20,000 nt of DNA from an uncultured virus (IMG/VR IMGVR_UViG_3300025727_000009) (Duplodnaviria; Heunggongvirae; Uroviricota; Caudoviricetes), in IMG/VR virus record IMGVR_UViG_3300025727_000009, positions 51,552 through 71,551 of that record; one strand, 5' to 3'. The notes beneath the pieces are model-generated. The model saw nothing but the letters and a program-made list of their open reading frames with translations, had not been told where the DNA came from and made no database searches. Every line of letters starts with the position of its first letter. The first letter of the stretch is position 1. The translations under genes were made by a program, and so were the position numbers. This document shows, piece by piece, positions 1,423-18,029 of the stretch.

Positions 1423-1460
1423 TGCAAAAACCGCGCATGTCTGGGTATAAAGACAATGAA
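1423..1460 (+). promoter_or_regulatory. Putative phage promoter, copy 2, driving the large ncRNA
   Basis: TGCAAAA (1423) ... GGGTATAAAGA (1443-1453) ... ATGAA (1456). Confidence 0.65.
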
Positions 1461-2306: not shown

Positions 2307-2310
2307 TTAC
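2281..2310 (+). terminator. 3' hairpin/terminator of the ncRNA
   Basis: GAAAGGGGGT-aattctc-ACCCTTTTC followed by TTAC; ends in the shared TTCTTAC tail. Confidence 0.55.
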
Positions 2311-2315
2311 CCCTA

Positions 2316-2332
2316 TTATTAGCCGCTAATAA
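2316..2332. repeat. Palindromic motif, copy 1 (TTATTAGC-C-GCTAATAA)
   Basis: Perfect 8-bp inverted repeat around a 1-nt centre, ending 2 nt before the promoter box at 2335. Confidence 0.9.
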
Positions 2333-2334
2333 CG

Positions 2335-2373
2335 TGCAAAACGGGTACCCCTTTAAGGGATAAGAACTATGAA
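2335..2373 (+). promoter_or_regulatory. Putative phage promoter, copy 3
   Basis: TGCAAAA (2335) ... GGGATAAGA (2357-2365) ... ATGAA (2369). Confidence 0.7.
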
Positions 2374-2578
2374 CAAGGAGGATTACATGGATTTCATTGA
2401 CCCGAAGAAGTGTCCTTGGTTCCAGGAAATCTGGGACATCCTGGAGAACCCGAGGCCGGGCGGAGTGGAGCGAGTGAAGGAGCTGACCAAGCTCATCTCG
2501 GACCGCTCCAAGGTCCGGACGGAAGCGTACAACGCGGACTTGTCCGCTCGAATCGAAGCGATTAACAACCGGGGCTAG
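2369..2578 (+). CDS. Hypothetical protein, 69 aa (possibly leaderless, or starting at ATG 2387)
   Basis: GC3-biased ORF directly after the promoter motif. A second ATG at 2387 follows AAGGAGG. Confidence 0.7.
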   Translation: MNKEDYMDFIDPKKCPWFQEIWDILENPRPGGVERVKELTKLISDRSKVRTEAYNADLSARIEAINNRG

Positions 2579-2616
2579 TCCCCCACCAAGCCCCGCTGGG
2601 GCAGAACGGCTGAGAG

Positions 2617-2733
2617 TTGAAGAAGTTCGTAGAGAAGTGCATTCCGATGGCCCTCGGGGCCAGCCTGCTCATCGTCGTCCCCGCCTTCCTGGCGTGGGGC
2701 AGGGCAGCGGCCCTCATCATGGGCGGAGGCTGA
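2617..2733 (+). CDS. Small putative single-pass membrane peptide, 38 aa (MKKFVEKCIPMALGASLLIVVPAFLAWGRAAALIMGGG)
   Basis: Translated by hand from TTG 2617 to TGA 2733. GC3-biased codons and a hydrophobic core; the start is uncertain. Confidence 0.5.
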   Translation: MKKFVEKCIPMALGASLLIVVPAFLAWGRAAALIMGGG

Positions 2734-2734
2734 G

Positions 2735-2848
2735 ATGGAGAGTCTGCTAGGGAAGCTCATCGCAGCCGGCATCGGTCTTGGCCTTGTGGCCGCCGAAGTC
2801 GGCATCTTCTGGCTCGGTTCGCTGCTGAAGTCCCTCCTGGGGCTATAG
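2735..2848 (+). CDS. Small putative membrane peptide, 37 aa (MESLLGKLIAAGIGLGLVAAEVGIFWLGSLLKSLLGL)
   Basis: GGAGG RBS at 2725-2729. The ATG is 1 nt after the upstream stop, and the TAG at 2848 is followed by a terminator. Confidence 0.65.
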   Translation: MESLLGKLIAAGIGLGLVAAEVGIFWLGSLLKSLLGL

Positions 2849-2867
2849 CAGCGGGCTGAGCGTCTTG

Positions 2868-2891
2868 GGGGGCATGTGCCCCCGTTCTTAC
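2868..2891 (+). terminator. Terminator-like hairpin
   Basis: GGGGGC-atgt-GCCCCC followed by GTTCTTAC. Confidence 0.6.
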
Positions 2892-2942
2892 GTATATACC
2901 CCCTAAACAGCCTCAAACAGGGCCGTACCCCCCCCTCCAAAC

Positions 2943-2981
2943 TGCAAAAATGGCACCTTTTATAGGGATAAGAAGTATGAA
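2943..2981 (+). promoter_or_regulatory. Putative phage promoter, copy 4
   Basis: TGCAAAA (2943) ... GGGATAAGA (2965-2973) ... ATGAA (2977). Confidence 0.7.
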
Positions 2982-3121
2982 GGAAGCATTACGCTCTCCT
3001 CCCACCCCAAGGCATCCTGCCTTTTGGTGGGATGAACACTTCGAGGCTGGAACCACGGTGCTGTGGGTCCGTAGGCTTTGGAGTCTTTAGAATACGCCTC
3101 ATTGAGGCGGAAGGATTCGAT

Positions 3122-3652
3122 ATGTCTCGCCAGTTGGTAATTGGAAATCTTCGCTTCGGCCTGACCCCCGCGCGCCAATCGGGCAATGGTGCCCTGGCCG
3201 TCGTGGCCCTCGTCACGGTCATCACCGTCGTGGTGGCGGGGGGCGTGTACTACTTCGCCAACCGCGACACCGCGGACGCCTACGCTCACGCTCATGGCGG
3301 TGTGGTGGTGATGCAGGAGCGGACCATCGCCGCGAGCATCAAGCTCATCGAGAAGGCGTTCGACAACGCGGTCAAGGCCGTGGCGGCGTGCGAGAAGGCG
3401 TCGGAGTCGAAGGGGGACAAGGACCCCTCGGCGACGAGCGTGGCGAAGGCCGCGAACGCCCGAGACGAGAAGCTCGACGTGCTCGACACCGAGATCGGCC
3501 GAGCCCTCGCGCACGCCCCGGACGCCGGTGCCCGCTTCGACGGGTTCAGCCGGACGGCCGCTGTGAAGAGGGGTCTGAAGGTCCACGGGCGGGCGGCGAA
3601 GGCCGTCGCCGCGGGCAAAGCGGACAAGGACGCGGCGAAGGCCGCGGCCTAG
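3122..3652 (+). CDS. Membrane-anchored Ala/Lys-rich helical protein with prepilin-like N-terminus, 176 aa
   Basis: ATG at 3122 after GGAAGGA. ...ARQSG-NGALAVVALVTVITVVVAGGVYYF forms a single TM segment. GC3 bias is strong from ~3190. Confidence 0.75.
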   Translation: MSRQLVIGNLRFGLTPARQSGNGALAVVALVTVITVVVAGGVYYFANRDTADAYAHAHGGVVVMQERTIAASIKLIEKAFDNAVKAVAACEKASESKGDKDPSATSVAKAANARDEKLDVLDTEIGRALAHAPDAGARFDGFSRTAAVKRGLKVHGRAAKAVAAGKADKDAAKAAA

Positions 3653-3775
3653 CCGCACCCCTGAGGTGACCTGTCAGCCGCTCCGGCAGCAGGTAGGTCC
3701 CTCAGGTTCGAGTGTCTTGAAATTCTAACAACAGGCGCCCAGCCTGGAGCCCGCTGATTGCGGTAGCAAAGGGAT

Positions 3776-3811
3776 AAAGAAGAGAGGGCGAGCACCCGCT
3801 CCTCTTCTTTT
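3776..3811. terminator. Probable bidirectional terminator at the convergence of the two transcription blocks
   Basis: Inverted repeat AAAGAAGAG...CTCTTCTTT with an inner GC stem, lying between convergent genes. Confidence 0.7.
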
Positions 3812-3823
3812 AGCTACACCAAC

Positions 3824-3838
3824 TATTAGCCGCTAATA
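3824..3838. repeat. Palindromic motif, copy 2 (TATTAGCCGCTAATA)
   Basis: Exact 15-mer, 1 nt from the stop codon of the 1564-aa gene. Confidence 0.9.
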
Positions 3839-3839
3839 A

Positions 3840-6800
3840 TTAGACGACGATGTTGTTGCCTATATCCGGGTTGGTCCCGGCGTCAGTCACTGCGGTGTCA
3901 ACGATGTTGAACTGCACCACGTTGTCATTCGTAGCGCCACTCAAGTCCACGGTAGCCGTGGCGCTCGGCCCGGCACCATCGTAAACCAAGCAGTTGTGCA
4001 CGATGAGGTTGCCGTCCGTGCTTATGGAGATGAGGCCACCAAGCGTGGTGTTACCCATGAGGGTGTTCTTGTCACCGGTGTTAATCACAATGCCCGAGGT
4101 CTCGTTGTTCCGGATGAAGCTTGAGTTGCCTCCGGTGTACAAGACGTTCGCGCAGTGGTTGTCACTGATGGAGTGCGCCCCGCCGGCTCCGCCAACCGTG
4201 ATGTCGCCGGTCATCGTGTTGCCCTGAACGCGGTGACCGATGCCCCCGTTGATGTCGACTGTCGTGCAGATGTTGTTGTAGACGGAGATGTTGTCTCCCG
4301 ACGTCACCTGGATTTCATCCGCAACGCGGCAACCCACCACCATGGAGCCATTGGCGCCAGCCAAGTCAATACCTGAACCGCCGCACACGCCAACGTCACA
4401 GTCCTTGACCGACGTGTCCGCGCTGGCAAGGTAAAAGCCTGTGCCGTCCGCCACGACGACGGTGCACCCCGTGAAGTGGATGTTATCCCCGATAGCCTGA
4501 AACCCCATATCGGCTGACGCCTGGACGACGCACCCCACTGCCCGAGACCCGGCACCGTTCAGAGAAATACCCACAAACCGAGCATCGCGGACCACTACGT
4601 TGCTGACGACGACGACCCCGGTAGGGTCAGTCTTCACGCCCATCACGGCTGCGTCAGGCGTCGTGCGGTCGATATGAATGAGGCAATCGGAGATGTGCAC
4701 GGACGCGGTAGCCAGGGCGTCGTCTACCTGGATACCGTGCCCCAAAGCGTCAAGCACAGTCGCGCCGGAAACGACCCCGTGCTGCTGGAGGTCTTCCAGG
4801 AAGATCGACGCATCCGCGAATCCCTCAAGGATGCAGTCGCGGACGACCGCGGACTCGGCGAACTTAATCTTCACACCGTGCAGGTTATTCGTGTTGTTGT
4901 CCGTCCCCGACGCAAGGAACCTGCAGCGCTCCACCAGGACGTCCTCGATATCAACCCCGCCCGCGCCCTCAACGATGATGCCGGCACCGGTAAGCGCCGT
5001 ACCCTGGCAGTCCCGAAACCTAATACGGCCGCCTACCGTAAGGTTGCGAAGAGTCGCAAAAGCGCTCCCGCCCGTAAGCACGCAGTCCTCAACCGACAGG
5101 CCGTAAAGGCTCCCGCTACTGGCGTCGAAGACGGAGGCCGTTGGCTCAGCTGGAGTGGCTGCGGCAGCCGCGGTACCTCCCCAGATAAAGTCGAGCCCCT
5201 TAAACTCCAACCCGCCTTTTCCGTTTAAGTCGAACAGCGCCGAGTCGTCTGCAGACCAAGTAATTCGTGGGCGGGCCGCGGTGAGCGAGCCCACAGGGCC
5301 TCCGCCAACAATCGCGATGTTGTCCACCGGAATAGCCAGGGGTACCGTCACGCCCTTGTTACCGTCCGACGCCTCCGTCGTTGAGCCCACCACCCTAATG
5401 CGCCACGCGAAATTGCCAACGGCTGACGAGCCGGTAGCGTCCACCTGGATGAGTTCAATCATCCGGAGGGCCTCACCGATGGTGGGAAAGGCGGCGCGCT
5501 CGTTATGGTACGCCGCGTCCAGGGCGCCCGCGCCCGTGAAGCTGCCCACGGTGATGTCGATGCGCTGGTCAAGGCGGCTAAGCGGCTGCGTGTACGCTGC
5601 AATCTGGGTAATGCTGGTGGCGTCTGTAGTCACCTTGGCCAGAATGACCCGGCCACCCGAACTCAGAACCTGCCCCGAGACATCCGCCTCTGCCGTAACC
5701 GTCCGCGTAGTTTCCGTCCACACCAAGTACTCGACAGCAGAAGGGGTAATGTCCACCGCCACTTCCGCCACCGCATACGCGGCGCCGTGCACGTAGACGA
5801 GGCACGCCCCAATAGCGGCCTTGAACGGGTTGGTGACCACGTAGCCAACGACGTCCGTGAGGTCCTCGTCCATCCCCGCATCGAGAACGGCATCAGCCGC
5901 GCCCACCGAACTCACCGCGGAGAAGTACCAAGTCCCCGACGCACGCTGAACGGCAATCACGTCGCCGTTCGCAAGGGGCACACCGTTCTCAAGGTCACCG
6001 GCGTCGTGGCGCTTAATCTTGTCGTCCGCCTCGGTGATGGTGAAGTTGAACGCCGACTTCACAGCCAGACCCAGCGAGAGCCCGGCCGTGGACATCGGGA
6101 AGCCAATCGGGTCGCTGGGACCGATGAGCCCGTCGCCCAGCATGCGCTGGCTAGAGCCCGCGCCCTGGAGCGCCCCCGTCAGCCCCTGCGTAGTGCCTGC
6201 CAGTATCGACTTAACCTGCAATGGCAGTACGTTGTGGTCAGCACTGCTGAACGGGATCTTGTTCCCCAATCCGGTGTGCCCGTCAGAGAAGCCGAATCCT
6301 GCGGAGCTACCCGTATTGGTCCAGTGCAGTCGCGCCTGCAGCGCACGTGCCTCGTTGGTCAGGCCCAGCGTGCGGTTGAGGGCTCCGATGTAGGCTTCGT
6401 CGTTAGTCTCGTGCGTACCGAACAGCGCGTTGATAACCGCAGCTGCATCACGGTCGCGAATGGTGATGGCGTCGACACCACCGCCCTGCTGGCGCAGCTC
6501 GATGCCCTCCTTCACCCCAGCACCCGAGGGCAAGAGCAACGTGAGCGGTCGAGACGCATGCATCTCAATGAAGCGACCGGCACCCTGGTACCGGGAGTAT
6601 TGGTCTCGGTCCAGCAGGTTCCAATACGAGTCGTTCAGCCCGCCGGACAGAAACCGGTCGGCGCCAACATCGTCGTCTAGGATTGGTGCGTGCTCAATGG
6701 AGGTGACCCGAAAGGTGTCCCCGCCTGCAGAGAAGCCGGAGCCCTCCCCAACATGGCCACCTACAACAATCGGCGCAGACGACCAGTCATCCTCAGGTGC

Positions 6801-8534
6801 CCACTCACTGGCCGAGCCGAAGGTCTTGCGCACTCGCTGCAGGACCATCACGTTCCCGGCGACTGAGACTATGAGCGCCCGCGTAATCGGCGCGCTCGGC
6901 TCGTCCCGGTTGTAGAGCCCCAAGTTCGCACCGGCAGTCGCACCGGCAGCCTCAAGCAGGAGCGCTCCGTCGTCATTGGTAACGGTGACTTTCCAGAGGT
7001 CCTCGCCAAGCACGCGAGCCGTGGGAGCCATCGACGTGTTCACGCCGCCCACAAGGCTGGTGGCCGCAGCTTGGTTGCCGACCTTCGCGTCCTTCATCCA
7101 CGTCCGCAGGCGCACCTGCTCCGAGCGGCTCAGCCCAAGACGGGTAGACGGGTCTTCCGACAGCCCCGGTGCAGCCGACATGCCCTGGCTCTGGAGGCGC
7201 TCACGGAAGGTAGAGAGCGTCCGACAGTCCACGCCGTAGTCGCCACCGATGAGGTCGCCGTAGGTGTAAATCAGCTCGGGGGACAAGGCGAACCCAGGCG
7301 GGCTGACGATGTAGACGTTCCCGGCCGCCTGATTCGGGTCGAACCGCACAGGCGAACCAGCGTGCTCGACCGCGGAGATGAGGGAGTTCGTCGTCGCCTG
7401 CGAGTAGAGCCGCGTGCCGTTGAGCAGGCCGTGGTTCTCCACGACGCCAGACTCTTGGTCCCACAGGCCGACCTGCCCCGACTGGAGGCTACCTGTGAAG
7501 TCCCCGCTGTCGTTGTTGACGCCAACCGCCTTGCCGTCGACCAAGAACTCCTCAGACGAAGACGCGGGCAAGAGCCACAAGTCATTGCCGACGATGTACA
7601 CGCAGTACGCGAAGTTGTCCCGCTCGTCCGCCGTGGAGGCCGCGGCTTGGTTCGGGGGCGTCTGCCACTCGACCCGGTCGCCTGCAGTGAACTGTGTGCC
7701 GTCACCCACAGTCACCTTGTGCAAGCCACCGCGGGTCAGGACAGCCTTGTCCCCTGTGCCGGCAGCGCCTGTGTCCTCAGACGGCATGACGTAGGCGATG
7801 CGGTAGAGCCCTGCATTGCCGCCGTTGGCCGCCTCGACGTAACAGCCGGGGCGTGCATAGCGACTGGCGAACGTGGCCGCCTTGAGGCGCACACCGTCGT
7901 AGTCCCACGACGAGGCCGCGACGATACCGTTGTCCGAGTTACCCAAGTACGGGGGCAGGTCCGAGCCGACCCGCCGCATGGGCGCGCACGCCTTCGGGTA
8001 ACGCCGCGTCGGAGAACCCGTGGTAGCAATCGTGCGAAAGACCGAGCTGGCTCCGCCGCCGCCCGTGTTGAACCGGACATCGACGGGCTCACGAATCTCC
8101 GTGACTCCGTCCGCGTCCTGGCGAACAAGCCGGATGCACTCAGACAGCTGCTCAGCGAACAAGCCGTGGTAGAGCCACACAGCGGCGGCGTCTATCCCAC
8201 CGGACGCGTCACCGAGGTTGATGGCCGTCGCACCTTGCGTGACGCCCGCCAGAGCCTCAAAGCCGAACTGGTCCGCACCACCGTCAGTCTGCTGGGGCTC
8301 CAAGAAGTCGTCCCGCAGCACCGGGCTGTCGAGCAGGCTGGCGACGTAGTCATTATTAGCGGCTAATGCCGAGAGCGCTCGACTGACCGCGTCGTGCGAG
8401 AAGTTCTCACCGTTGGTGAACAGCTTCGCGCCCGGCGAGGGCGCGGTGAACGGCGTGCCCGTGGCGGCGGAAGGAATCGACGTGAGCGCCGTGTGCGCGT
8501 TGGTGTTCCCAGCGAGCTTACCGAAGTACTTCAT
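3840..8534 (-). CDS. Tail fibre/tailspike with C-terminal right-handed parallel beta-helix (pectate-lyase-like), 1564 aa
   Basis: Long Gly/Ala/Thr-rich ORF. The last ~500 aa show beta-helix periodicity (V.DC.L.G, GI.V, I.NN, V.GN). Confidence 0.8.
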   Translation of the reverse strand: MKYFGKLAGNTNAHTALTSIPSAATGTPFTAPSPGAKLFTNGENFSHDAVSRALSALAANNDYVASLLDSPVLRDDFLEPQQTDGGADQFGFEALAGVTQGATAINLGDASGGIDAAAVWLYHGLFAEQLSECIRLVRQDADGVTEIREPVDVRFNTGGGGASSVFRTIATTGSPTRRYPKACAPMRRVGSDLPPYLGNSDNGIVAASSWDYDGVRLKAATFASRYARPGCYVEAANGGNAGLYRIAYVMPSEDTGAAGTGDKAVLTRGGLHKVTVGDGTQFTAGDRVEWQTPPNQAAASTADERDNFAYCVYIVGNDLWLLPASSSEEFLVDGKAVGVNNDSGDFTGSLQSGQVGLWDQESGVVENHGLLNGTRLYSQATTNSLISAVEHAGSPVRFDPNQAAGNVYIVSPPGFALSPELIYTYGDLIGGDYGVDCRTLSTFRERLQSQGMSAAPGLSEDPSTRLGLSRSEQVRLRTWMKDAKVGNQAAATSLVGGVNTSMAPTARVLGEDLWKVTVTNDDGALLLEAAGATAGANLGLYNRDEPSAPITRALIVSVAGNVMVLQRVRKTFGSASEWAPEDDWSSAPIVVGGHVGEGSGFSAGGDTFRVTSIEHAPILDDDVGADRFLSGGLNDSYWNLLDRDQYSRYQGAGRFIEMHASRPLTLLLPSGAGVKEGIELRQQGGGVDAITIRDRDAAAVINALFGTHETNDEAYIGALNRTLGLTNEARALQARLHWTNTGSSAGFGFSDGHTGLGNKIPFSSADHNVLPLQVKSILAGTTQGLTGALQGAGSSQRMLGDGLIGPSDPIGFPMSTAGLSLGLAVKSAFNFTITEADDKIKRHDAGDLENGVPLANGDVIAVQRASGTWYFSAVSSVGAADAVLDAGMDEDLTDVVGYVVTNPFKAAIGACLVYVHGAAYAVAEVAVDITPSAVEYLVWTETTRTVTAEADVSGQVLSSGGRVILAKVTTDATSITQIAAYTQPLSRLDQRIDITVGSFTGAGALDAAYHNERAAFPTIGEALRMIELIQVDATGSSAVGNFAWRIRVVGSTTEASDGNKGVTVPLAIPVDNIAIVGGGPVGSLTAARPRITWSADDSALFDLNGKGGLEFKGLDFIWGGTAAAAATPAEPTASVFDASSGSLYGLSVEDCVLTGGSAFATLRNLTVGGRIRFRDCQGTALTGAGIIVEGAGGVDIEDVLVERCRFLASGTDNNTNNLHGVKIKFAESAVVRDCILEGFADASIFLEDLQQHGVVSGATVLDALGHGIQVDDALATASVHISDCLIHIDRTTPDAAVMGVKTDPTGVVVVSNVVVRDARFVGISLNGAGSRAVGCVVQASADMGFQAIGDNIHFTGCTVVVADGTGFYLASADTSVKDCDVGVCGGSGIDLAGANGSMVVGCRVADEIQVTSGDNISVYNNICTTVDINGGIGHRVQGNTMTGDITVGGAGGAHSISDNHCANVLYTGGNSSFIRNNETSGIVINTGDKNTLMGNTTLGGLISISTDGNLIVHNCLVYDGAGPSATATVDLSGATNDNVVQFNIVDTAVTDAGTNPDIGNNIVV
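8354..8368. repeat. Palindromic motif, copy 3 (intragenic, 1 mismatch)
   Basis: TATTAGCGGCTAATG; read on the - strand as GCA TTA GCC GCT AAT AAT (ALAANN). Confidence 0.85.
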
Positions 8535-8568
8535 GTCAGTTCCACACAGCCTTCTACCGCGTCCAGAC

Positions 8569-9198
8569 TCATAGACGTAATTCCCAGTTCACCCGCAACA
8601 CCGTGTTAGGCGTCACGGGTATGGCCGAGAAAGTGTTGTACGCCACCAACCGATTCACATCGGTCGGCGTCACCAAAGCCGGGTTGGCCGTCGACAGGTA
8701 GAGCCCCGCCTCAGAGACAGGCGCGTTCGTTCCAACGAGGATGCCCGACGTGTACGAAGTGCTCAGGGCGTAGGACACCTCCGACTCGACGAAGTCGGCG
8801 ATGAAGGCAGTCCGGAAGTCCCCGGGAAAGAACACGTTGCTCGGGTAAGACTGGTCGAGCACCTTCTTCAACCACGTCTTGACCCCGCCACCCGTCTGGC
8901 TGACAGGGATGGGGTCTTCGAGCGCGGTGACCGTAACCGTCTCCGGCTGAGTGTTGGCGAAGTTGGCGTCCGTCTGAAGGGCGCCTCCGCAGCCCAAGCC
9001 GATATACGCCACCTTCTCCGTTGCGTGCGGCGTCGGCGGGTCGACCGAGTAGTCCGACGCGCCGAGCATCTTGGCCAGCCACGCACGGCCCGTGTTCACG
9101 AAGACGTTGTGGGACTCACGCGTGTGCGCCAGGACCCCGTCCTCGTAAGCGCGGACCACGACGTTGGCAGAGATGTTGAAGTTCTCTGTGAGCTTCAC
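8569..9198 (-). CDS. Tail-collar/fibre-attachment-like virion protein, 209 aa
   Basis: HN..VN.G...LA..L, IGLG.G, SEAGLY and AY.TF..I......L.V.W motifs typical of myovirus baseplate/fibre-anchoring proteins. GTG start with GAGAGGGG upstream. Confidence 0.65.
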   Translation of the reverse strand: MKLTENFNISANVVVRAYEDGVLAHTRESHNVFVNTGRAWLAKMLGASDYSVDPPTPHATEKVAYIGLGCGGALQTDANFANTQPETVTVTALEDPIPVSQTGGGVKTWLKKVLDQSYPSNVFFPGDFRTAFIADFVESEVSYALSTSYTSGILVGTNAPVSEAGLYLSTANPALVTPTDVNRLVAYNTFSAIPVTPNTVLRVNWELRL

Positions 9199-9219
9199 TT
9201 GAACGCGCCCCTCTCAAAA

Positions 9220-9744
9220 TTACGCAACATGAGCCCAACTCCTACGCAAGATGATGTTGCGGGCCTGAACATTCGTGACACCGTACTGCCTACCCAGCTC
9301 TGAGTAACTCAGCTTACCTTCAGGGCAGCTCCCGGGCTTTCCCCACCCATGCTCAGCCCAGTCAGCGCGCATCGCTAGAACGACAGCTTCGGTGAGCTTC
9401 ACCGTGTTGGAGATGTCAGAGCCGCAGGCCGTACGCTTCTTGGCGTCACGGTCACTCATGTTGTCCGCGGGAGTACCCAACCACAGGTGGTCCGGGTTCA
9501 CGCAACCGGGGTTGTCACAAGCGTGGCCGACGAAGAGCTTCCCGGGCTTGCGCCCGTTGCCGAACTCGAAGGCCAAGCGGTGCGCCTTGTACGTCTTACC
9601 CCTGAAGCTGAGTCGGCCATAACCCTTGGTGTCGTGGCCACCCTCCCAGGTCCAGCAGTCTCCGGGGTTGTTACCGGGGGCTGCTCGATGCCGGAAGCGC
9701 GCCTCCAGAGATAGCTTTGCCCACCCGTCAGGTCGTGCCCCCAT
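9220..9744 (-). CDS. HNH homing endonuclease with C-terminal HTH-like domain, 174 aa
   Basis: CWTWEG..D.KGYG, AHRLAF and H.CDNP.CVNPDHL..GT..DN..D motifs. The ATG at 9744 overlaps the lysin stop (TAATG). Confidence 0.9.
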   Translation of the reverse strand: MGARPDGWAKLSLEARFRHRAAPGNNPGDCWTWEGGHDTKGYGRLSFRGKTYKAHRLAFEFGNGRKPGKLFVGHACDNPGCVNPDHLWLGTPADNMSDRDAKKRTACGSDISNTVKLTEAVVLAMRADWAEHGWGKPGSCPEGKLSYSELGRQYGVTNVQARNIILRRSWAHVA

Positions 9745-10478
9745 TACTTCCAGACCCCCGAATACTCCATGTGCATGTCGTCCGGCGTGCTCCACCGACC
9801 GCCCCACGCCCAGCCGGCTTGCTCGAAGGTTTCGACAAAGCCCATGTGCTTCCGCAGCATGGTGTCAGTCTTCCCGTACCCGTTGAGCCGTGCGTCGAAG
9901 TCGACCGCGATGCCCCAGGAATGCCTGGACAGCGGCTTCGTCGGATTCCACATCATGTGGCGCGGGACCCAAGAGCCAACCCGCTCGGGGACGTAGCCCC
10001 CGGCGGCGCAAGCGGCCCTGAACAGGTCAGCGAACCCGACTGCAACCTTCTTGTTCAGCCAGACATGCCGACCGATGTGGAGGTCTACCTTGACGATATT
10101 GGCATACGACCAACTCTTCGAGATGATGATGCCGCCCTTTTGGGCGGGGTTCTCCTTGTACTCGAAGTCGCCGTAGGTCCGCTTGACCACGTCCCTAGAC
10201 AAGAGTGTAGGGAACGCCGACTCGGGGACCTCGACAGCAGACGGGACGACCGCTTCAGGTGCGATACCGCCTACCAGCGACTCAATGACCGAGCGGGTCA
10301 TGGGGCCGCACAGCGAGTCGACTGTGAGCTTGTGTGCCTCCTGGAACTCCCGTGTGCCAAGGCCGACGAGGTACACCAGAGCGTCCTCGCTCAGCTCCTT
10401 GAGGGCTACCCGGTTGTACGCGTCCGCGTTCACCACGCTTGTTACCTCTGCAATCACATCCGAGATTTCAGACAACAT
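9744..10478 (-). CDS. Endolysin: peptidoglycan-binding-like N-terminus plus M15-family Zn peptidase, 244 aa
   Basis: FQ..H.L.VD..CGP.T (PG-binding-like); SRHSWGIAVD and WGG.W..PD.MH.E (M15 metal-binding motifs). Confidence 0.88.
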   Translation of the reverse strand: MLSEISDVIAEVTSVVNADAYNRVALKELSEDALVYLVGLGTREFQEAHKLTVDSLCGPMTRSVIESLVGGIAPEAVVPSAVEVPESAFPTLLSRDVVKRTYGDFEYKENPAQKGGIIISKSWSYANIVKVDLHIGRHVWLNKKVAVGFADLFRAACAAGGYVPERVGSWVPRHMMWNPTKPLSRHSWGIAVDFDARLNGYGKTDTMLRKHMGFVETFEQAGWAWGGRWSTPDDMHMEYSGVWK

Positions 10479-10481
10479 ACG

Positions 10482-12383
10482 CTAGTACCCCGGGACGGCG
10501 GCAAGGGATTTGAACGCGAGCATGTACACACGTGGCAGCTCAGCCGCCGTTTCCGAGTTTACCCGAACAGCCAGCCTGCCCGCAGTAGCGACCACCCCGG
10601 TGTACCGGTACATGAAGCTCGGTAGCTGCCCTGGCAGGGCATAGTAGACATCCAGGTCGGTGCCCGTCCGCTCCAGGAAGATGTCGTACGTAGTGCCCCG
10701 CCAGAACTCGATGCGCATGCTGGCGCCTGGGTTGGTGTCGTTGTCCCAGTAGTCGGTGGCTGTGACGCCGCTCATCGGACCGAAAGCGTAGTCGGCCGCT
10801 TCTTGGAGGTCGGAAAACAGCCCCCCACCGAACCAGTTGTCTGTATCCACGTCGGTGACGCCATTGAGGAAGGCGAAAGACGTCTGAAACCGTGTGGCGT
10901 TGTTCAGGTCAATGCCCTGCGGGAGCGAGACAGCGAGGCGCATCGCATACACGAAGTCCGTCGCGGGGGTGTTAGTGGTGTGAACCACCCCCTGGGCCTG
11001 CAGGGCGTCCGTCAGGACCATGCGGATGATCGTGCCGTTCACATCCACGGTGTCCCGTGTAGCCAGCGCCTGATCCCCACCATACCCGCTGGCGTCGGCC
11101 CACTCCGCCAGCACGGGCGTGGCGCCTGTGTACGCCCAGTCTCCGACGCCCACGCCATCGCCCGCCGCAGACGGGGTAGCGGGCGCCCAGCGCGAATTGC
11201 CGTTATCCCAGGCCAGCACCTGTGTGTCTGTCGGGGCGTCCGTGTGGACCGTACGGCCCTGGAGCTGGGTAGCGTTATGGACCAGCGTCGTCGGGTCCCA
11301 GCGCGTATTGCCGTTGTCCCACACCAACGCTTGGCCGTCCGTGGGTGCGTCCGTGTGAACGGTGCTGCCCTGGAGCTGCGTGGCATTGTGGACGAGGGTA
11401 GTCGGGTCCCACCGGCTGTTCCCGTTGTCCCAGGCCATGACCTGCCCGTCTGTGGGCGCGTCGGTATGAACTGCGTAGCCTTGTAGCTGTGTGGCGTTGT
11501 GGGTCTCCACCGCGTACGTGTCCGGAGCGCCGTCGAACCACACCATGCCCGCGGTAGCGGTCACCATGGTAGACGCCGCCTTCTGGAGGCAGTAGCCGAC
11601 CTGCCGCGTGAAGTCACCGACGTCCTTCGCCATCAGCCCCCCGTTCGAGATGTAGACCGGGTCGTTCTCGGCCGTGTACCCCGACGTGTCCAAGGGGAAG
11701 TAGCCCCGCAGCATCAGCATGCCTGTGGCGCCGTTGGCGACCGTTCCCAGCCACGCACCAATCGAGGCATCCCCAATGGCCGCCTGTGTGCCGAGCGCCG
11801 TTCCCGTCTGGGCAACGATGTCCGTCAGGTGGGCGGACATGGCGTCACCGTCTGCGCCAGCCCCAGAGAAGCGGGCGTAGTCCGTGACCTGCGACAAGTC
11901 CCCCGCCGACCGCTCCGCGCCGGTACCGTTGATGGCCATGACAGCCATGCGCCCACCAAGGACTTGCTGGAGGCGGCGGAGGTGCTGCTCGATAGACCGG
12001 GACCAGCCTGTCTGGTCCGTGTACTGGCCGCCCTCGCGTGGGGCCGGAAGAGCCTCAGCCCCGTACCCGCTGGCAATCTCAAAGAGGCCGGAAAGAGTGA
12101 CTTGGTCGCCGCCTGTCTCCGTCACGATACAGATGACGAGGTACCGCCCCGCTACCTTGGGCGTGAACGTCTTGTCCTCCAACGTCGAGGACAGCCCAGA
12201 AAGCCCCAGCCCGGCCGGGTGGTGTTCCGGCCCGTACAGGAAGAAACCCTCCCCATCACCGGGGGCGTCGTAGTCACCCCAGACGGCCCCAACCGACAAC
12301 GCGACTGTTACCTGCACATTCGCGGGACGGTTCTGCAGGACCTGCTGAGGTCCTGTCGCGTCCTCCATCGTAAGCGTAGCCAT
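10482..12383 (-). CDS. Tail fibre / receptor-binding protein, 633 aa
   Basis: Internal fibre-type repeats (APTDGQ...WD....W.P), a beta-rich aromatic C-terminal domain, and its position in the structural operon. Confidence 0.7.
   Translation of the reverse strand: MATLTMEDATGPQQVLQNRPANVQVTVALSVGAVWGDYDAPGDGEGFFLYGPEHHPAGLGLSGLSSTLEDKTFTPKVAGRYLVICIVTETGGDQVTLSGLFEIASGYGAEALPAPREGGQYTDQTGWSRSIEQHLRRLQQVLGGRMAVMAINGTGAERSAGDLSQVTDYARFSGAGADGDAMSAHLTDIVAQTGTALGTQAAIGDASIGAWLGTVANGATGMLMLRGYFPLDTSGYTAENDPVYISNGGLMAKDVGDFTRQVGYCLQKAASTMVTATAGMVWFDGAPDTYAVETHNATQLQGYAVHTDAPTDGQVMAWDNGNSRWDPTTLVHNATQLQGSTVHTDAPTDGQALVWDNGNTRWDPTTLVHNATQLQGRTVHTDAPTDTQVLAWDNGNSRWAPATPSAAGDGVGVGDWAYTGATPVLAEWADASGYGGDQALATRDTVDVNGTIIRMVLTDALQAQGVVHTTNTPATDFVYAMRLAVSLPQGIDLNNATRFQTSFAFLNGVTDVDTDNWFGGGLFSDLQEAADYAFGPMSGVTATDYWDNDTNPGASMRIEFWRGTTYDIFLERTGTDLDVYYALPGQLPSFMYRYTGVVATAGRLAVRVNSETAAELPRVYMLAFKSLAAVPGY
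11181..11501 (-). repeat. Three tandem 111-bp (37-aa) coding repeats
   Basis: HNATQLQG..VHTDAPTD.Q...WDNGN.RW.P units start at 11501, 11390 and 11279. Confidence 0.95.
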
Positions 12384-12394
12384 CGTTCACCAAT

Positions 12395-12409
12395 TATTAG
12401 CGGCTAATA
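12395..12409. repeat. Palindromic motif, copy 4 (exact on the - strand)
   Basis: TATTAGCGGCTAATA. It supplies the last codons and TAA of the 113-aa ORF and lies 11 nt upstream of the fibre ATG. Confidence 0.9.
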
Positions 12410-12738
12410 GCCGCCAGCTTGTGGAGGACTGTAGCGCGTCGCTGGAGGGACATGCTGCCCTTCTTCTCCAGCGCCCTCTTCGTGTCCCGAACCAGTTGTG
12501 GGGCCGAGCCTACCAGCCACCCAGCGCCTCCGCCGGTAACGGCCCGCTCCAAAAGGTGCCAGAGAGCGCGGCGTTTCTTCAGCTTCGCCGCGACCCCGAG
12601 ACCTCGCAGGGCCTTGGCGCTCTTGTAGGCTTTGCGCCCACCGTGCAGGCCGGAAGCAGCCCCAAGACCGGTGCCCAATGCGGTGCCCAATCCAGGCCCC
12701 GCATTCACCCAATTTCGCTTCTTCTTCTCCGCCATCAC
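12397..12738 (-). CDS. Small basic glycine-zipper-like protein, ~112-113 aa
   Basis: Start overlaps the upstream stop. GLGTALGTGLGAASG and GGGAGWLVG segments; Lys/Arg rich. Confidence 0.65.
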   Translation of the reverse strand: MMAEKKKRNWVNAGPGLGTALGTGLGAASGLHGGRKAYKSAKALRGLGVAAKLKKRRALWHLLERAVTGGGAGWLVGSAPQLVRDTKRALEKKGSMSLQRRATVLHKLAAISR

Positions 12739-15700
12739 TCGCCTCCGAAGGGATCTTCCCCAAGAATACCACCACCCAACCCGGCTTCACCGGGCGGGGA
12801 CAGACCGACCACGTAGGCAGCAGCGGCGACCGCCTCATCCATGTGGACCGGAGCGGGCGGGTCTGTAAGGGCCATCCGGTACGGCCGGTAGTTTCGGACA
12901 ATTACGTCGTAGTACCCATCCGCCAACCCGGCGGGTGCGGTGAACTCAAGGATGTGTCCTGTGCTGGTCTGGTCGTTCCCATCGTAGCCGAGCACCACCT
13001 TGCCCGCGTTGTTGCCCGTCTCGAAAGTGTAGGCCACCACCGGGGTCTCCACCTGGGACTCTCTGTGCCGCAAGAACACCCAGCAGCCGCCCTTGATTCC
13101 GTCGAACGAATCCGGGTTGGCGGTAGGGACCGTCCCGCGCGTGTCATCGTCTGCAACGAAGAAGGAGCCCTCCACACGCAACACATTGGTGCCGTAGTCC
13201 ACCGTGACGTACTGGATGTCTGGCGGCGGGATACAGAACTCCAGGAACCCATGGGTCTTGTGCCAGCCCTTGATGGCGCGGACACAGATGCCGATGTGGA
13301 CGTTCTCCAAGTCGAGCTGCTCTACACCCGCGACTCTTGTGAAGTCCGCCAAAGCAACAGGGTCACCCAGCATTACGCCCTCGTCGGTGTAGCCCCAGCG
13401 GACCTTGGCGACGCCCTTATCCAGGCCGTTCCAGTCCGTGAAGAAGCCCGGACCAAAGCTGGGTACGAGCTGTTCATCCGGGTTCGTGACCTCGAATGCC
13501 GCGTCGTATGGGTACTGCTGCACCTGATTGTCGAGGACACCAGACGCAGCAAACTGCGGCCGGTCTTCGAGGCTGACGGGCTCGGTCTCCAGGTCCTCGA
13601 TGAGCATGCCGCCCAGCGGGATGTACACCATGTTGGACAGCGACAGCACGTCCGCGGGCGCGAACCGCTGCAGCTTCCCAACGCTCAGGATGTGCTCCCG
13701 GTGGTAGAACTTGTCGTTGGCTGCATCGGCCGGGTCGTGGTCCGCCATGGTCACAGCGAGCGCACCGGACGTGGCGCCCTTCAAACTGCCGATGGTGGCG
13801 CGGAAGTTCCACAACGCGTAGAGCCTCTCCTCCGCACCGTAATTGCTGTAGTCCGCCGTGTTCGAGTTCTCGAAGCCGAGGATGAGGTACGTGAAGGGGT
13901 GCTCTGTTTGAGGGTTGAAGACCCCGAAAGGTAGCTTGGGGTGGACCCCCGCCCCAATGTACTCCACAACCGGGGGAGACTCGGCCCACGGGGTATCCAG
14001 TTCCGCTGTCAGGCCCACATCCCACAGCTCGATGGCCTCACCGACCTGAAACTCCAGCGAGACTTGGTCCCCTGTGGTCGTGCGCTGGATTGGGACCCAC
14101 AGCTTGGACATGCACACGTCCAGGTCGGGCTCGACCTGACTGACCATGTGCACCACCCCTTGGTGCTCGTTCCAAGAGCCGTCGCCCGAGTAGCTGGAGA
14201 CAACGCCCTCCGCGTAGCCCGACTCGTACTTGTCCTCAACGTCAGCGTCCGTCCACGCGCCGCCGGTACCGTCTGCACGACCCAGCGTCTCCAGCCCAGG
14301 CCAGAGCTTGGTCCGGTCTGCGCCGTCGTCCGCTCGGTAGCTGAACGGAGCGGTATGAAGCGTGTCTGCGAGGCGCATGGTCGGGTGGTACGTGGGGTTG
14401 TCCACCACCGAGATTTCGTCAGCGAAGTCCAGCGCGCCCAGCAAGAGGACGTTGGTGTGCTCGGGCTTGGCCTCGTCCAAGAAGCTCTGCAGCACAGCGA
14501 AGGGCTCTGTCGTCCCCGCGATGTCGAGCGGCACGCGCACAACGAACGTGTGGTACTGCCGGATGATGTCCTGCCCCGGAAGAAGCGTCGTCATCAGACC
14601 AGGGTTGGTGATGTAGTCATCTACCCTCACCACGTCGAGCAGCACGACATACGGGTCCAGCTGTGAGTCACGCCACGCCTCGTACAGCGGTGTGAACGCC
14701 GCCAGCGTGAGTTCCTCAGTCGGAATCGACTCCCGGTTCCGCTCCGCCCACACCTCGAACGACGCCTGCAGCTCTCCGTCGAGGAAGCCGACCGACGAGC
14801 CCCGGTCAATCGCTTGGAAGGGGCGGCTCGTCCGCGGGTTGAGCGCCCGCACGTTCGCGGAGAACGGGTAGGTGTACGTGAGTAGGTCGTCGTCCGGCGT
14901 GGCAATCACGATGCGACCCAGGTCGGTAGCGGAAAGGGGCTCTTCCCACACCACGATTTGCCCGGTGACCTCGGAGTACGGGAGGCCGAACATGGCCTGC
15001 GTCGCGAGCTGGGTGTTGCCCAGCGTCGGCCCTGAGGCGAACGCGAACATCATCCCGCGCACCACGGAGAGGTAGTCGACCTGCCCCCGGCTCGCCTCCT
15101 GCCACACTTCGTGCGGGAGACCCACCATCAGGCCGAAGTTGTTCTCGACCGTCTGCCAGTTGTCGAAGTACGCCAGCTCCGCCCACAGCCGCTTCGGCCC
15201 CGGGCGCAGCGCGCTCCACGGACAGATGCGTGCGGTCACCTCCCCCGAGATGTTGAGAGGGCGCTCCACCGTAACCGTGCGGCCCGACTGAGACAGGATG
15301 CGGTACGTCCCTGCGTCACCGTCGTTCAACACGAGCGCCACGCCACCTAAGGCGGCCAACTCAGTGAACGTGGCCTCTACCGCTTCTGAGTGCAGCCGCA
15401 GGAACTGGTCGAACACCACGTCCGCTGAGTCCGCAGTGGCAGTCGCCTTGCCCTCCCACAGCGGTGTGATAGCGACCTGCCCGTCCTTCACACGGAAGTC
15501 GAGTCTCTCCGTCAGCTCCTGGCTGTTTGGGTTCCCGCCCAGAACCGGAATAGCGACGAGGTCGTCCACCGCGGCGGTCAACCGCTCACGGTAAAAGCCC
15601 ATGACCGAGAGCGTCATCACCGAGAGCTGCTCCAGCCCCACGGTCTCTCGGTCTGCACCGGTGAGTTCAGAGACGACGTTCATTGCGTCGAACAGCGGCT

Positions 15701-18029
15701 CCCAGCCAATGAAGACCGCCTGCCCCTTGGTCGCCACGATGGGCAGATAGCTGACCACCTCGTCGCCCGTCGTCGGGTCAACCACGAGGACCTCGACGTA
15801 GTCACCCGTGGTAAGCCCGAGCGCCGCAACGTCGAAGTCAGTGCTCAGCGTCAGATACGGCGTAGCTCGCGCGAGGACCTTGCTGGGCGGGCGAAGGTGG
15901 TCCCACCAGAGCCTAACGCCCGTGATGGTCTGCTCCGACTCAGCGCCACCGAGGGCCAGCTTCCCCGGGCTGACCTGGGCAGACAGCGTCAGCACGGTCC
16001 CGTCCCGTCGTGCTTCCTCGTCGTAGACCCGAATGAGGTCGGAAGCCAGCACCGGGTCGAGATACGCCTTGTCCTCCAGGTGGAGCGTTGTGTCAGCCGC
16101 TCCCGCAGCGTCGTCAACCCACGCACCAGCAAAGCGCTCTGAGATGAGCTTGTATGCCGGGAAGGCGTCCTCCGCCGCGTAGAGGCGCCAGCCGGTCGTC
16201 TCTTCCAGCACCTGGATGACCTGCACGACCTCAGCCGGGAGGCCGTCCGCCAAGACGAGCATCAGGCCGGTGCCGATGGTAGGCGTCCCCTGGCCTGTAG
16301 TGATCGCGGACCCCGCCTTCGTACCGGACGTCAGACTCCCGACAGTCAGGTCCCATGAGCCCAGCAGGCTCGGCGTCACCAGCTCAGTAGTCACCCCCGT
16401 AGGCAGCTCCGTGTAGAGCGGGTAATGCGTCCACCGACGCTGGTAGCGCCTGCCCACGTCACGGATGGACCGAGCGAAACCGTGCTGCCACGTACTGAGC
16501 AGCTCAGCCGAGACCACCTGGGTCATCGCCGACCACAGCGAAGACAGGACTTCGCGGTCGTTCACGAGGTCCCAGAAGTCCGGGAGGTACTGCCAGATGT
16601 ACCGAGAGTCGGGACGCAGCCCGAGCAGCTGGTCCGTCTCCTGCACGACAACGGTGTGCGTGTCTGCGAGGCTCCTGCCCACCCCGTTGCTGACCCGCAG
16701 GCGCAGGCCGTAGATGCCAGCGAGGTCTGGCAGCAGGATGGGGTTCATCAGTACCGACGCCGCGCCGCCACTGAAGAGCGTTGTCCCGGTAGGGACCACC
16801 CCAAGATTGGTGGCGTTCGGGTCCACGATGTCACCGCGGAACATCTCGGCAGCGGCTTCGACGTACCCCGCCGCACCGACACGACTGAAGGCATCGACCA
16901 AGTCTTGTGGCGTCGTAATGGCATCGCCGCTCCCGTCCGATGCCAGGGCGACACGCAGCTCCTTCGCTGCCAAGTCCAACACGACTGCCAGAAGGCTGCC
17001 TGCCGAGCCGGTGGAGATAATAAGCTTCCAGCTGTTCCCGGTCGTGTGCTCAGAACGGAAGGCCAGCTGAACTTGGTTATCCGCCGCCTCTGTCCCGAGC
17101 GCCACCTTCGATGCGATTCCGCCTGAGAGGCGCGCAACACTCTCCGCCGGGCGAGAGGTGATATCCCACTCGAACGTGAGTGCACGGCCCTTGACGTCTG
17201 ACGAGCTGCGCCCGAACAGCTCAACGGTGGAGCCGACGAGGTCCTGGTACTCCCCGTCGATGACCGCGATAGGGCGGTCTTCCGGCACAACCAACGACGA
17301 CGCCAGACGGATGGCCGAGACGCTGAAGGCGGTATTAGTCGCTAATACATTCTCCCCCGACCGGGCCAAGGCCGCGAGGATGATGGAGTCTCCATACGCA
17401 GGGGGCGCCTGCGGGGCGTCCAGGTGGTACCGCAGCTCGTTGTTGGCCGCGTCCGCCCAGGCCCCACCAGCGTCGGCGTCGTAGGCCACCGCAGTGTCAT
17501 CGATGTAAATCGAGACCAGCCCGGTCTCCCCATTGAGCAGCATCCGTACGGTGATGCTGGCCTTGGGCTTGCCCTCCGCATCGAAGATGAGCGCCGCAGA
17601 GCCACCCAGCAGGGAGGGCCGCGGGTCAGCGGGGTCGGTCGCAAGTGCGAGGCCCTGCCGGGAGAACAGCAGCCCCGCAGAGTAGCCCTGCGCGTTGGCC
17701 GCGCCGACGAAGAGCCGGGAGCCCGTGTCCTCGAACAAGAGCGGCATGCTCTCGGACAGGTGGACATCGAACTCGATTGTGAAGACCGAAGGAACCACGA
17801 CCGAGTTGAGGACCGCCAGGGCCGCTGCGATATCGTCCGCTGCGCGGCCCTCAGCAACCGCCTTCAGCTGCAGCCCGCTGCTAACGAGGCTGACCCCCGG
17901 GCTCACGTCAAAGCTGCTGAGAACCCCATCGGTGGCGTCCGCAACGCTCCGGTCGCCAGCGTCAGTGGTGCTGGCGTAGCGGCTGTTCCAGTCCGCGAGA
18001 TTGAACTTAACCGATGTCGGAGTCGCCAC
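12735..18029 (-). CDS. Large baseplate wedge-like virion protein with a PKD/Ig-like domain, 1764 aa
   Basis: PKD-like signature (P.A.I...VG.TV.L.G..S.D..G..LTFEW...P.LAG.Y.L.L.VSNG), W.YLPDFW, and an FL...KPEHT motif resembling the KPAH motif of baseplate wedge proteins. Confidence 0.7.
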   Translation of the reverse strand: MATPTSVKFNLADWNSRYASTTDAGDRSVADATDGVLSSFDVSPGVSLVSSGLQLKAVAEGRAADDIAAALAVLNSVVVPSVFTIEFDVHLSESMPLLFEDTGSRLFVGAANAQGYSAGLLFSRQGLALATDPADPRPSLLGGSAALIFDAEGKPKASITVRMLLNGETGLVSIYIDDTAVAYDADAGGAWADAANNELRYHLDAPQAPPAYGDSIILAALARSGENVLATNTAFSVSAIRLASSLVVPEDRPIAVIDGEYQDLVGSTVELFGRSSSDVKGRALTFEWDITSRPAESVARLSGGIASKVALGTEAADNQVQLAFRSEHTTGNSWKLIISTGSAGSLLAVVLDLAAKELRVALASDGSGDAITTPQDLVDAFSRVGAAGYVEAAAEMFRGDIVDPNATNLGVVPTGTTLFSGGAASVLMNPILLPDLAGIYGLRLRVSNGVGRSLADTHTVVVQETDQLLGLRPDSRYIWQYLPDFWDLVNDREVLSSLWSAMTQVVSAELLSTWQHGFARSIRDVGRRYQRRWTHYPLYTELPTGVTTELVTPSLLGSWDLTVGSLTSGTKAGSAITTGQGTPTIGTGLMLVLADGLPAEVVQVIQVLEETTGWRLYAAEDAFPAYKLISERFAGAWVDDAAGAADTTLHLEDKAYLDPVLASDLIRVYDEEARRDGTVLTLSAQVSPGKLALGGAESEQTITGVRLWWDHLRPPSKVLARATPYLTLSTDFDVAALGLTTGDYVEVLVVDPTTGDEVVSYLPIVATKGQAVFIGWEPLFDAMNVVSELTGADRETVGLEQLSVMTLSVMGFYRERLTAAVDDLVAIPVLGGNPNSQELTERLDFRVKDGQVAITPLWEGKATATADSADVVFDQFLRLHSEAVEATFTELAALGGVALVLNDGDAGTYRILSQSGRTVTVERPLNISGEVTARICPWSALRPGPKRLWAELAYFDNWQTVENNFGLMVGLPHEVWQEASRGQVDYLSVVRGMMFAFASGPTLGNTQLATQAMFGLPYSEVTGQIVVWEEPLSATDLGRIVIATPDDDLLTYTYPFSANVRALNPRTSRPFQAIDRGSSVGFLDGELQASFEVWAERNRESIPTEELTLAAFTPLYEAWRDSQLDPYVVLLDVVRVDDYITNPGLMTTLLPGQDIIRQYHTFVVRVPLDIAGTTEPFAVLQSFLDEAKPEHTNVLLLGALDFADEISVVDNPTYHPTMRLADTLHTAPFSYRADDGADRTKLWPGLETLGRADGTGGAWTDADVEDKYESGYAEGVVSSYSGDGSWNEHQGVVHMVSQVEPDLDVCMSKLWVPIQRTTTGDQVSLEFQVGEAIELWDVGLTAELDTPWAESPPVVEYIGAGVHPKLPFGVFNPQTEHPFTYLILGFENSNTADYSNYGAEERLYALWNFRATIGSLKGATSGALAVTMADHDPADAANDKFYHREHILSVGKLQRFAPADVLSLSNMVYIPLGGMLIEDLETEPVSLEDRPQFAASGVLDNQVQQYPYDAAFEVTNPDEQLVPSFGPGFFTDWNGLDKGVAKVRWGYTDEGVMLGDPVALADFTRVAGVEQLDLENVHIGICVRAIKGWHKTHGFLEFCIPPPDIQYVTVDYGTNVLRVEGSFFVADDDTRGTVPTANPDSFDGIKGGCWVFLRHRESQVETPVVAYTFETGNNAGKVVLGYDGNDQTSTGHILEFTAPAGLADGYYDVIVRNYRPYRMALTDPPAPVHMDEAVAAAAYVVGLSPPGEAGLGGGILGEDPFGGE
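17333..17347. repeat. Palindromic motif, copy 5 (intragenic, 1 mismatch)
   Basis: TATTAGTCGCTAATA, flanked by G/C that extend the palindrome; read as GTA TTA GCG ACT AAT ACC (VLATNT). Confidence 0.85.

Follow-up and report, generated by a model that had tools for sequence, protein, structure and literature searches.

What protein reads a palindrome that recurs along a tailed-phage genome, both between genes and within long ones, and to what end? The question is raised by a stretch of 20,000 nucleotides (hereafter, the window) that forms the end of the 71.5-kb record G000 of an uncultured virus of the Caudoviricetes (IMG/VR IMGVR_UViG_3300025727_000009, positions 51,552 to 71,551), in which the AT-rich palindrome TATTAGC-N-GCTAATA occurs five times. 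In a preliminary description of the window, it was proposed that these copies belong to a genome-wide system of sites for a dimeric DNA-binding protein. This has held up, in that 36 evenly spaced sites were found in 145.8 kb of this phage. The array probably represents the loading sites of an orphan ParB-family clamp encoded by the phage, which would also regulate some promoters in a KorB-like manner; we hold this reading with moderate confidence.

An evenly spaced array confined to one phage clade

All five copies in the window were found where they had been described, exact at positions 2317, 3824 and 12395 and with one mismatch at 8354 and 17333. Allowing up to three mismatches still gives five copies, compared with a mean of 0.09 in shuffled sequences, none of 200 shuffles reaching five. 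Their spacing, described earlier as about 1.5, 4.5, 4.0 and 4.9 kb, measures 1507, 4530, 4041 and 4938 bp. The whole record G000 contains 15 copies with at most one mismatch and none with two. Over ~68 kb, a longer contig of 143 kb, G001, shows 5 real differences from it and so belongs to the same phage; it carries 33 copies with at most two mismatches, against none for the reversed control. Combined, the two records give the 36 sites, with position weight matrix scores of 18–30 bits, the next score being −0.7. The consensus is TATTAGY-S-RCTAATA, with a centre that is G or C in 36/36 sites and holds 1.0–1.75 bits. A 183-kb contig (L321) carries an identical capsid gene, which suggests that the array count covers ~79% of this phage and that about 37 kb lies outside it.

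Gaps between sites have a mean of 4.1 kb and reach 8.3 kb at the longest, with a coefficient of variation (CV) of 0.51 against a null of 0.97 (P < 1e-4). Fourteen of the 36 sites lie within called open reading frames (ORFs), a figure that includes two weakly called ORFs. Of the atypical codons noted earlier in intragenic copies, TTA was confirmed as rare: it accounts for 32 of 3640 leucine codons, yet 11 of these 14 sites use it, and each of the remaining three loses an in-frame TAG through its mismatch. Of the 22 sites outside genes, 16 are exact copies, compared with 2 of the 14 intragenic ones (P = 0.0016). The proposed selection at the DNA level is thus supported both by the even spacing and by the rare codons in intragenic copies. 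Among the possible arrangements of the half-sites, only TATTA..TAATA is enriched (31 exact cases; no direct or everted ones in this phage), as expected of a protein with two-fold symmetry, and this agrees with the dimeric reader suggested at the outset. Orientation is weakly biased, with 21 of 30 sites pointing one way overall, 13 of 16 between genes (P = 0.02) and no bias within genes (8:6), and the distance from site to start codon varies from 12 to 478 bp.

A capsid tree separates an 18-row clade that includes this phage from an 8-row sister group, both supported at 100/100. When the motif was sought in relatives, looser sites were found across the clade. TATTA-N5-TAATA, or the same dyad with 4-base arms, ranks top among spaced dyads in G002–G006 (18–51 sites each), and spacing is even in G002–G005 (CV 0.54–0.64, P ≤ 0.003), though such degenerate site sets include some chance matches. 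G015, G020 and G021 have mostly N4 sites and some N5. In G007, a 35-kb in-clade fragment, N4 and N5 sites are few and there is a weak excess of an N6 form (16 vs 7), whose 16 bp is the canonical length of ParB and Noc sites. A near-identical 16-bp N6 form was also seen beside the capsid gene in loci L133, L137, L138, L139, L143, L191, L194, L198, L200, L202 and L203, where it may be due to constraint on the coding sequence or be a long-spacer site that is conserved. The start TATT is kept in all sub-lineages, whereas the centre, strict in this phage, is nearly free in its relatives (0.05–0.34 bits).

The sister group lacks the array. A site is present in 10 of 10 in-clade loci longer than 10 kb and in none of 34 sister loci; exact arms occur in 4/4 in-clade records and 0/8 sister records, and three complete sister genomes have no site above 12 bits. 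Sister genomes have enriched dyads of their own (CCTCGAGG in G030 is an example), but these are unevenly spaced (CV 0.9–1.25), have the look of codon effects and were rejected as equivalents. Within the clade, density is conserved and position is not. Conservation at orthologous positions, which had been put forward as a check, fails for the intragenic copies, as just 1 of 68 is kept, and positional conservation was therefore rejected as a constraint on them. Genes longer than 3 kb in the relatives carry sites at close to genome density, three of the five such genes here have sites, and no gap exceeds about 9 kb in nine genomes. The array is therefore real, clade-wide and under selection.

In a viral scan covering 16 of 64 parts, the exact 15-mer gave single matches only, besides G001. 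A scan of 8 of 64 parts of GTDB put the number of exactly matching stretches at about 1100 in 596 Gb, no more than chance gives for a 15-mer; the 80 matches listed are single ones in unrelated taxa. As for the likeness to a host regulator site that the preliminary description had raised as a possibility, the GTDB counts speak against it, while the motif does resemble the sites of KorB and Noc. That the motif has no known likeness is thus not supported: the KorB operator (OB) of plasmid RK2, TTTAGC(G/C)GCTAAA, is identical to the palindrome at 11 of 13 bases, and the outer TATT is common to the Noc site.

The orphan ParB-family protein and its surroundings

A search for phage-encoded ParB, helix-turn-helix (HTH) and ribbon-helix-helix (RHH) proteins, as had been recommended, found all three kinds. 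The best candidate for the binder is the ParB-family protein P0001 (433 aa, G001 55657–56958, outside the window). Alone, it matches Spo0J with an E-value of 3.4e-5; the profile of its 52-sequence family matches Spo0J at 6e-28, Noc at 1e-23 and KorB at 1e-6, although single members mostly fall below Pfam cut-offs. The best fold match of a predicted model of the G003 orthologue (pLDDT 65) is again Spo0J (Z 10.4, rmsd 3.3, 155 residues aligned). The family has an N-terminal ParB fold with Boxes I, II and III; GxxR of Box II is invariant in 52/52 aligned homologues and the EN-x-x-R box is kept. It also has, at its centre, a DNA-binding HTH domain, which aligns with those of Spo0J and Noc and, at E ≤ 0.01, gives an HTH_ParB match for 31 of the 52 members. 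A homodimer is predicted through C-terminal residues 301–361, with a score of 0.53 vs 0.00 for the best control, a pLDDT of at least 76 and a contact agreement between runs of at least 45%; of the solved pairs, 20 of 30 reached the score mark, as did 1 of 23 single chains.

The gene follows the distribution of the array. It was found in 4/4 complete in-clade genomes. Of 11 in-clade records, 6 have it and those without it are fragments of 20–75% completeness, and the close ParB profile gave no match in 18 sister-group records. No ParA (PF13614) was found in five records, of which four are complete relatives and the fifth is this phage at ~79% coverage (control positive in 14/14), and the P0001 family is without the ParA-binding motif LG(R/K)GL. 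General family scans of the proteins gave no KorA match. In the relatives, ParB starts at the first strand of the CTPase domain, so an N-terminal membrane helix is absent.

A site lies 47–105 bp upstream of parB in 7/7 genomes at a cut-off of 11.5 bits, chosen after the scores were seen; at this cut-off parB ranks first of 110 families, with a background of 0.14. Sites precede the other candidate readers rarely: 0/8 for the gene of a clade-restricted XRE-like HTH protein (141 aa, G001 107956–108381; L128:5956–6381) and 1/6 for that of a clade-restricted RHH protein (56 aa, G001 44351–44521; L124:10351–10521). These two are possible rival binders or possible clamp-locking partners.

Comparison with known systems draws on published papers (PMC13768133, PMC7481178, PMC11790492, PMC7383237, PMC5577506, PMC12704722, PMC9283540, PMC12619734). 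According to these, a glutamine at position 173 of the ParB/Noc code reads A1 and an arginine at 201 reads C6; in Noc, Q158 reads the A of TATTTCCC and the R186 position reads inner base 6. Counted along alignments, Noc Q158 corresponds to an invariant glutamine of the phage HTH (Q227), and R186 to K256 in this phage and to T, G or N in its relatives. The recognition code thus appears to predict the site in part. This comparison of sites with HTH residues covers three sub-lineages; the family has about 45 more distant ParB relatives besides.

Next to parB stand genes for an AAA ATPase and a coiled-coil protein, the latter without a family or structure match. The coiled-coil gene, just upstream of parB, is flanked by two clusters of 2–3 copies, partly inverted, of a different, 22-bp palindrome, GTGAC-N12-GTCAC, separated by AT-rich spacers of ~50 bp:

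G001 54057–54215 and 55324–55492 (L125:3057–3215 and 4324–4492): 22-bp palindrome clusters in this phage
G003 43772–43886 and 44996–45110: 22-bp palindrome clusters in a relative

Such clusters are present here and in five relatives, in G020 in degenerate form, and the palindromes occur at this place only. They could be the true parS of the ParB, an origin, a recombination site or the operator of another protein. The wider parB block (G001 51036–60659; L124, L125) is conserved and clade-specific and encodes JAB-domain, ThiF/E1-like, AAA ATPase, RecA-like, DUF2997 and radical-SAM proteins; it looks like a ubiquitin-like conjugation module.

Promoter-like elements, the window and the phage

Many genes, most of them in the arm of small genes, are preceded by a bipartite motif, (G/A)CA(A/G)-N16–18-GG(G/C/T)ATAAG, which is also present in the sister group. 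The motif is a putative promoter and as such a candidate for the promoter consensus of this group of uncultured phages. Twenty-five copies of the form GCAA-N17-GGNATAAG stand ahead of small early-type genes in this phage. At nine of these, a palindrome ends 2–27 bp upstream (null 0.34, P = 4e-4) and none lies within an equal span downstream. The null is a shift null that takes no account of both features being intergenic, but the element is present in 9 of 19 site-bearing intergenic regions and in 13 of 54 others. Pooled over nine genomes, 18 of 99 elements have an adjoining site against 1.9 expected (G020, 0/17). The window copy at 2317 is of this promoter-adjacent class, and its 4-bp gap can be set beside RK2, where 4 bp likewise separate the end of the operator from the −35 box.

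The copies in the window and the features around them are as follows (no strand is given for the palindromes):

2317..2331: exact palindrome copy, intergenic, ahead of a promoter-like element
2336..2364, plus strand: promoter-like element GCAA-N17-GGGATAAG, a putative promoter preceding the 69-aa ORF
2369..2578, plus strand: 69-aa ORF, 3' of the site and the promoter-like element, without family match
2944..2972, plus strand: second promoter-like element, no adjoining palindrome, the nearest 612 bp away
3824..3838: exact palindrome copy between convergent genes, 2 bp beyond the stop of the 1564-aa ORF
3840..8534, minus strand: 1564-aa ORF containing the 8354 copy; sites lie elsewhere in the orthologues of six relatives
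8354..8368: one-mismatch intragenic copy, codons GCA TTA GCC GCT AAT AAT (A-L-A-A-N-N)
10482–12383: 633-aa ORF, start 12 bp from the 12395 copy
12395..12409: exact palindrome copy that shares bases with the stop codon of the 113-aa ORF, ahead of the 633-aa ORF start
12397..12738, minus strand: 113-aa ORF; the 12395 copy supplies its final codons and stop, read A-I-S-R-stop
12735..18029, minus strand: 1764-aa ORF containing the 17333 copy; orthologues in six relatives have 3–4 sites each, elsewhere
17333..17347: one-mismatch intragenic copy, codons GTA TTA GCG ACT AAT ACC (V-L-A-T-N-T)

The 17333 copy is unchanged in a ~93% identical strain despite 22 differences in 301 bp, an outcome that chance alone would give about one time in three. 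Two copies had been assigned to virion genes. They do lie in large ORFs whose neighbours are a weak tail match and an endolysin, and these neighbours make a virion role for the 1564-aa and 1764-aa ORFs plausible; the ORFs themselves gave no PHROG or Pfam match, nor did the 1764-aa ORF give a usable Atlas match. In the late gene block, an HNH homing endonuclease stands beside an M15 peptidase endolysin (window 9220–9807 and 9744–10478). About 860 bp at window 1450–2310 have no convincing ORF, a lower GC content and a reversed GC skew and are kept in the ~93% identical strain; they are possibly a non-coding RNA or an intron-like element.

The phage encodes PolA, a primase, DnaB, RecA, Snf2, a terminase, a tail-sheath-like protein and an endolysin. 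The β and β′ subunits of an RNA polymerase are fused in one ORF of 2478 aa with a LAGLIDADG insert (G001 96371–103807; L127:11371–18807), and inteins are also present in PolA and the terminase. Many small late-region proteins (G001 61493–64663 and 75977–83225) have a common N-terminal 'LEKLA/KTA' motif. No tyrosine integrase was found in G001 or four complete relatives (controls positive in 14/14). Among cultured phages there are only distant, partial capsid matches at 35–37% in four records (OQ632216, OZ195729, OZ196140 and OZ196545, from Salmonella and Vibrio phages of 180–187 kb, to the putative major capsid protein, MCP), ParB matches are likewise partial, and a tblastn search with the G003 ParB gave no match among plasmids.

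Proposed clamp loading, rival readings and known systems

In the mechanism that we favour, a ParB dimer would load at each site through its HTH domains, close on binding a nucleotide, presumably CTP, and slide as a clamp over the ~4 kb between sites; with loading sites every 2.5–4 kb, clamps would cover the whole genome. Because clamps would spread between sites, these would be needed inside long genes and yet be free to move. Sites that abut promoters, probably including that of parB itself, would add direct regulation. KorB has been shown to load and slide as a clamp. Partition is an unlikely role because no ParA was found in the five records searched; the array may serve repression, anti-silencing or genome organisation.

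Several observations weigh against clamp loading by ParB. Box II (GFQR/GYRR) is without the canonical glutamate. Sequence does not allow the preferred nucleotide to be predicted, and some orphan ParBs are reported to bind ATP or GTP; the homodimer prediction, too, may have passed owing to likeness to solved ParB dimers. Residues N178, R204 and the permissive Lys 179 are not kept, so the recognition code transfers only in part, and the sites are 14–15 bp long vs 16 bp for parS and Noc-binding sites (NBS). A KorB-like core is seen in this lineage only. The association of a site with parB is sensitive to the choice of cut-off, being found in 4/7 genomes, at rank 6, when 13 bits is used. Spacing in G006 is not clearly even (P = 0.09), and in G015, G020 and G021 the N5 sites alone are uneven; pooled N4 and N5 sites are even (P = 0.03, 0.0005 and 0.008), a pooling that was chosen afterwards. 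The co-occurrence of parB with the array amounts to one clade and one event, XRE-like HTH, RHH and Snf2 are as clade-restricted as parB, and the sister genome G038 carries an unrelated ParB-like gene, detected with a wider profile (L401:1306–2268), and no array. Finally, the 22-bp palindromes cluster right beside parB, the usual place of plasmid centromeres.

It is mainly this last point that supports the leading rival, in which the array would be the operators of the XRE-like or RHH repressor, in the manner of stoperators, while ParB binds the 22-bp palindromes as centromere or origin. The XRE-like protein is present in 7/7 and the RHH protein in 6/7 in-clade genomes and both in 0/3 sister genomes, the 141-aa protein resembles XRE clusters and the 56-aa protein matches HicB/Arc profiles; that nine sites abut promoter-like elements, that intergenic copies are mildly biased in orientation and that the 22-bp palindromes occur beside parB alone would also suit it. 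We nevertheless regard it as unlikely, given the near absence of sites upstream of either repressor gene, a 22-bp motif without the T-(A/G)-T-T start of parS and NBS, and the fact that a static repressor leaves even spacing and positional turnover unexplained. A stoperator-like array had been among the models of the preliminary description, and the stoperators of cluster A mycobacteriophages are similar in comprising dozens of repressor-type sites, some at promoters. As published, however, each stoperator is an asymmetric 13-mer that a monomer binds, and they stand in strict orientation in short intergenic spaces, the bound protein halting elongation, whereas the sites here are palindromes with a weak orientation bias, many of them mid-gene, so the classical form fits poorly.

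Even spacing and turnover suit any process that needs periodic marks. The sites could thus serve packaging, nicking, DNA entry or the loading of Snf2 or RNA polymerase, with a reader other than ParB; T5-like phages, with their programmed nicks, set a precedent, and Snf2 is clade-restricted. This we consider improbable, as it leaves the promoter-adjacent class, the site upstream of parB and the likeness to ParB sites unexplained, and as the sister group has terminase, capsid and polymerase in common with the clade yet no array. Still less probable is that the phage mimics the site of a Noc-, ParB- or MatP-like host chromosome organiser to recruit the host protein. The half-site does resemble that of Noc; against this, spacer and centre vary among sub-lineages in step with the phages' own ParB variants, and exact matches in the 8 of 64 GTDB parts scanned do not exceed chance. 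The least probable reading is that the palindrome is itself a promoter, terminator or hairpin, as its AT-richness and the several copies at gene ends might suggest. A separate promoter-like motif is present, also in the sister group without the palindrome, distances to start codons are unfixed and copies lie inside polymerase genes, and these roles were rejected; the preliminary description had already judged an RNA hairpin unlikely, and with the inner bases free in relatives only a 5-bp AT stem is left.

Clamp loading by ParB also has precedents, the closest of which is KorB/OB of RK2 (IncP-1). In both systems there is a ParB-family protein and an odd-centred palindrome with a G/C centre; RK2 has 12 operators in ~60 kb, one per 4–5 kb, of which some precede the upstream promoter box by a few bp while others stand over 1 kb away from promoters, and the phage likewise has many dispersed sites of which some abut promoter-like elements. 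The differences are that RK2 is a plasmid, that neither an IncC/ParA partner nor, in general scans, a homologue of KorA was found here, KorA and TrbA being clamp-locking co-repressors of KorB, and that P0001 is nearer to Spo0J and Noc than to KorB. Between RK2 and R751 the OB sites keep their positions, whereas the phage intragenic sites turn over; two outer bases differ from OB in 36/36 sites, and the relatives are without the core.

Noc has an N-terminal membrane-binding helix, which the relatives' ParB lacks, and NBS sites are dispersed over the Bacillus chromosome. Noc is, like the phage protein, a ParB paralogue without the ParA-binding motif, its site starts with TATT, and in both proteins a glutamine stands at the A1-reading position and a basic residue at the C6-reading one; NBS, however, is a 16-bp TATTTCCC-GGGAAATA site, compared with 14–15 bp here. 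Of the Noc specificity residues Q-K-K-R, Q is kept, R is replaced by K in this phage or by T, G or N, and Lys 179 is absent. With ParABS, the phage protein has in common the order of CTPase fold, HTH and predicted C-terminal dimer. A classical parS centromere, another model offered earlier, is unlikely because no ParA was found, beside parB or elsewhere in the records searched, and the sites are evenly dispersed and not clustered. The phage system would work like KorB/OB or Noc/NBS and yet belongs to neither, with ParB as its putative binder. The phage itself resembles the mReC phages (Weinheimer and Aylward 2020, PMC7481178), which are large, tailed and equipped with their own β and β′ RNA polymerase. 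The subunits are here fused, the putative MCP has no Pfam match where mReC phages have PF07068, and the best family of the terminase large subunit is PF05876, not PF03237. Six contig identifiers were not found in the supplements of that paper, and for these reasons the phage was not filed as mReC.

ParB clamps that load at dispersed sites have been described for a plasmid (KorB) and for a bacterial chromosome (Noc); literature searches, mostly of open-access papers, gave no report of a dispersed array of ParB sites in a phage, nor of this motif. Phage genomes hold many orphan ParBs, whose DNA targets and roles are reported to be mostly obscure. The candidate described here comes with a sharply defined site map, with promoter-adjacent and intragenic classes of sites and with natural variants of site and HTH, and it opens to testing the role of an orphan phage ParB, the distance over which clamps spread and the evolution of ParB specificity and half-site spacing. 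More tentatively, this clade of ~180-kb phages may lay a ParA-independent ParB coat over its entire genome, with selection for loading sites even within essential genes and at positions that shift. This would be a phage nucleoid or chromatin in which the HTH co-evolves with the centre and the length of the site (14, 15, perhaps 16 bp); such a coat might, equally tentatively, shield or compact the DNA or provide a landing track for the phage's Snf2 and RNA polymerase.

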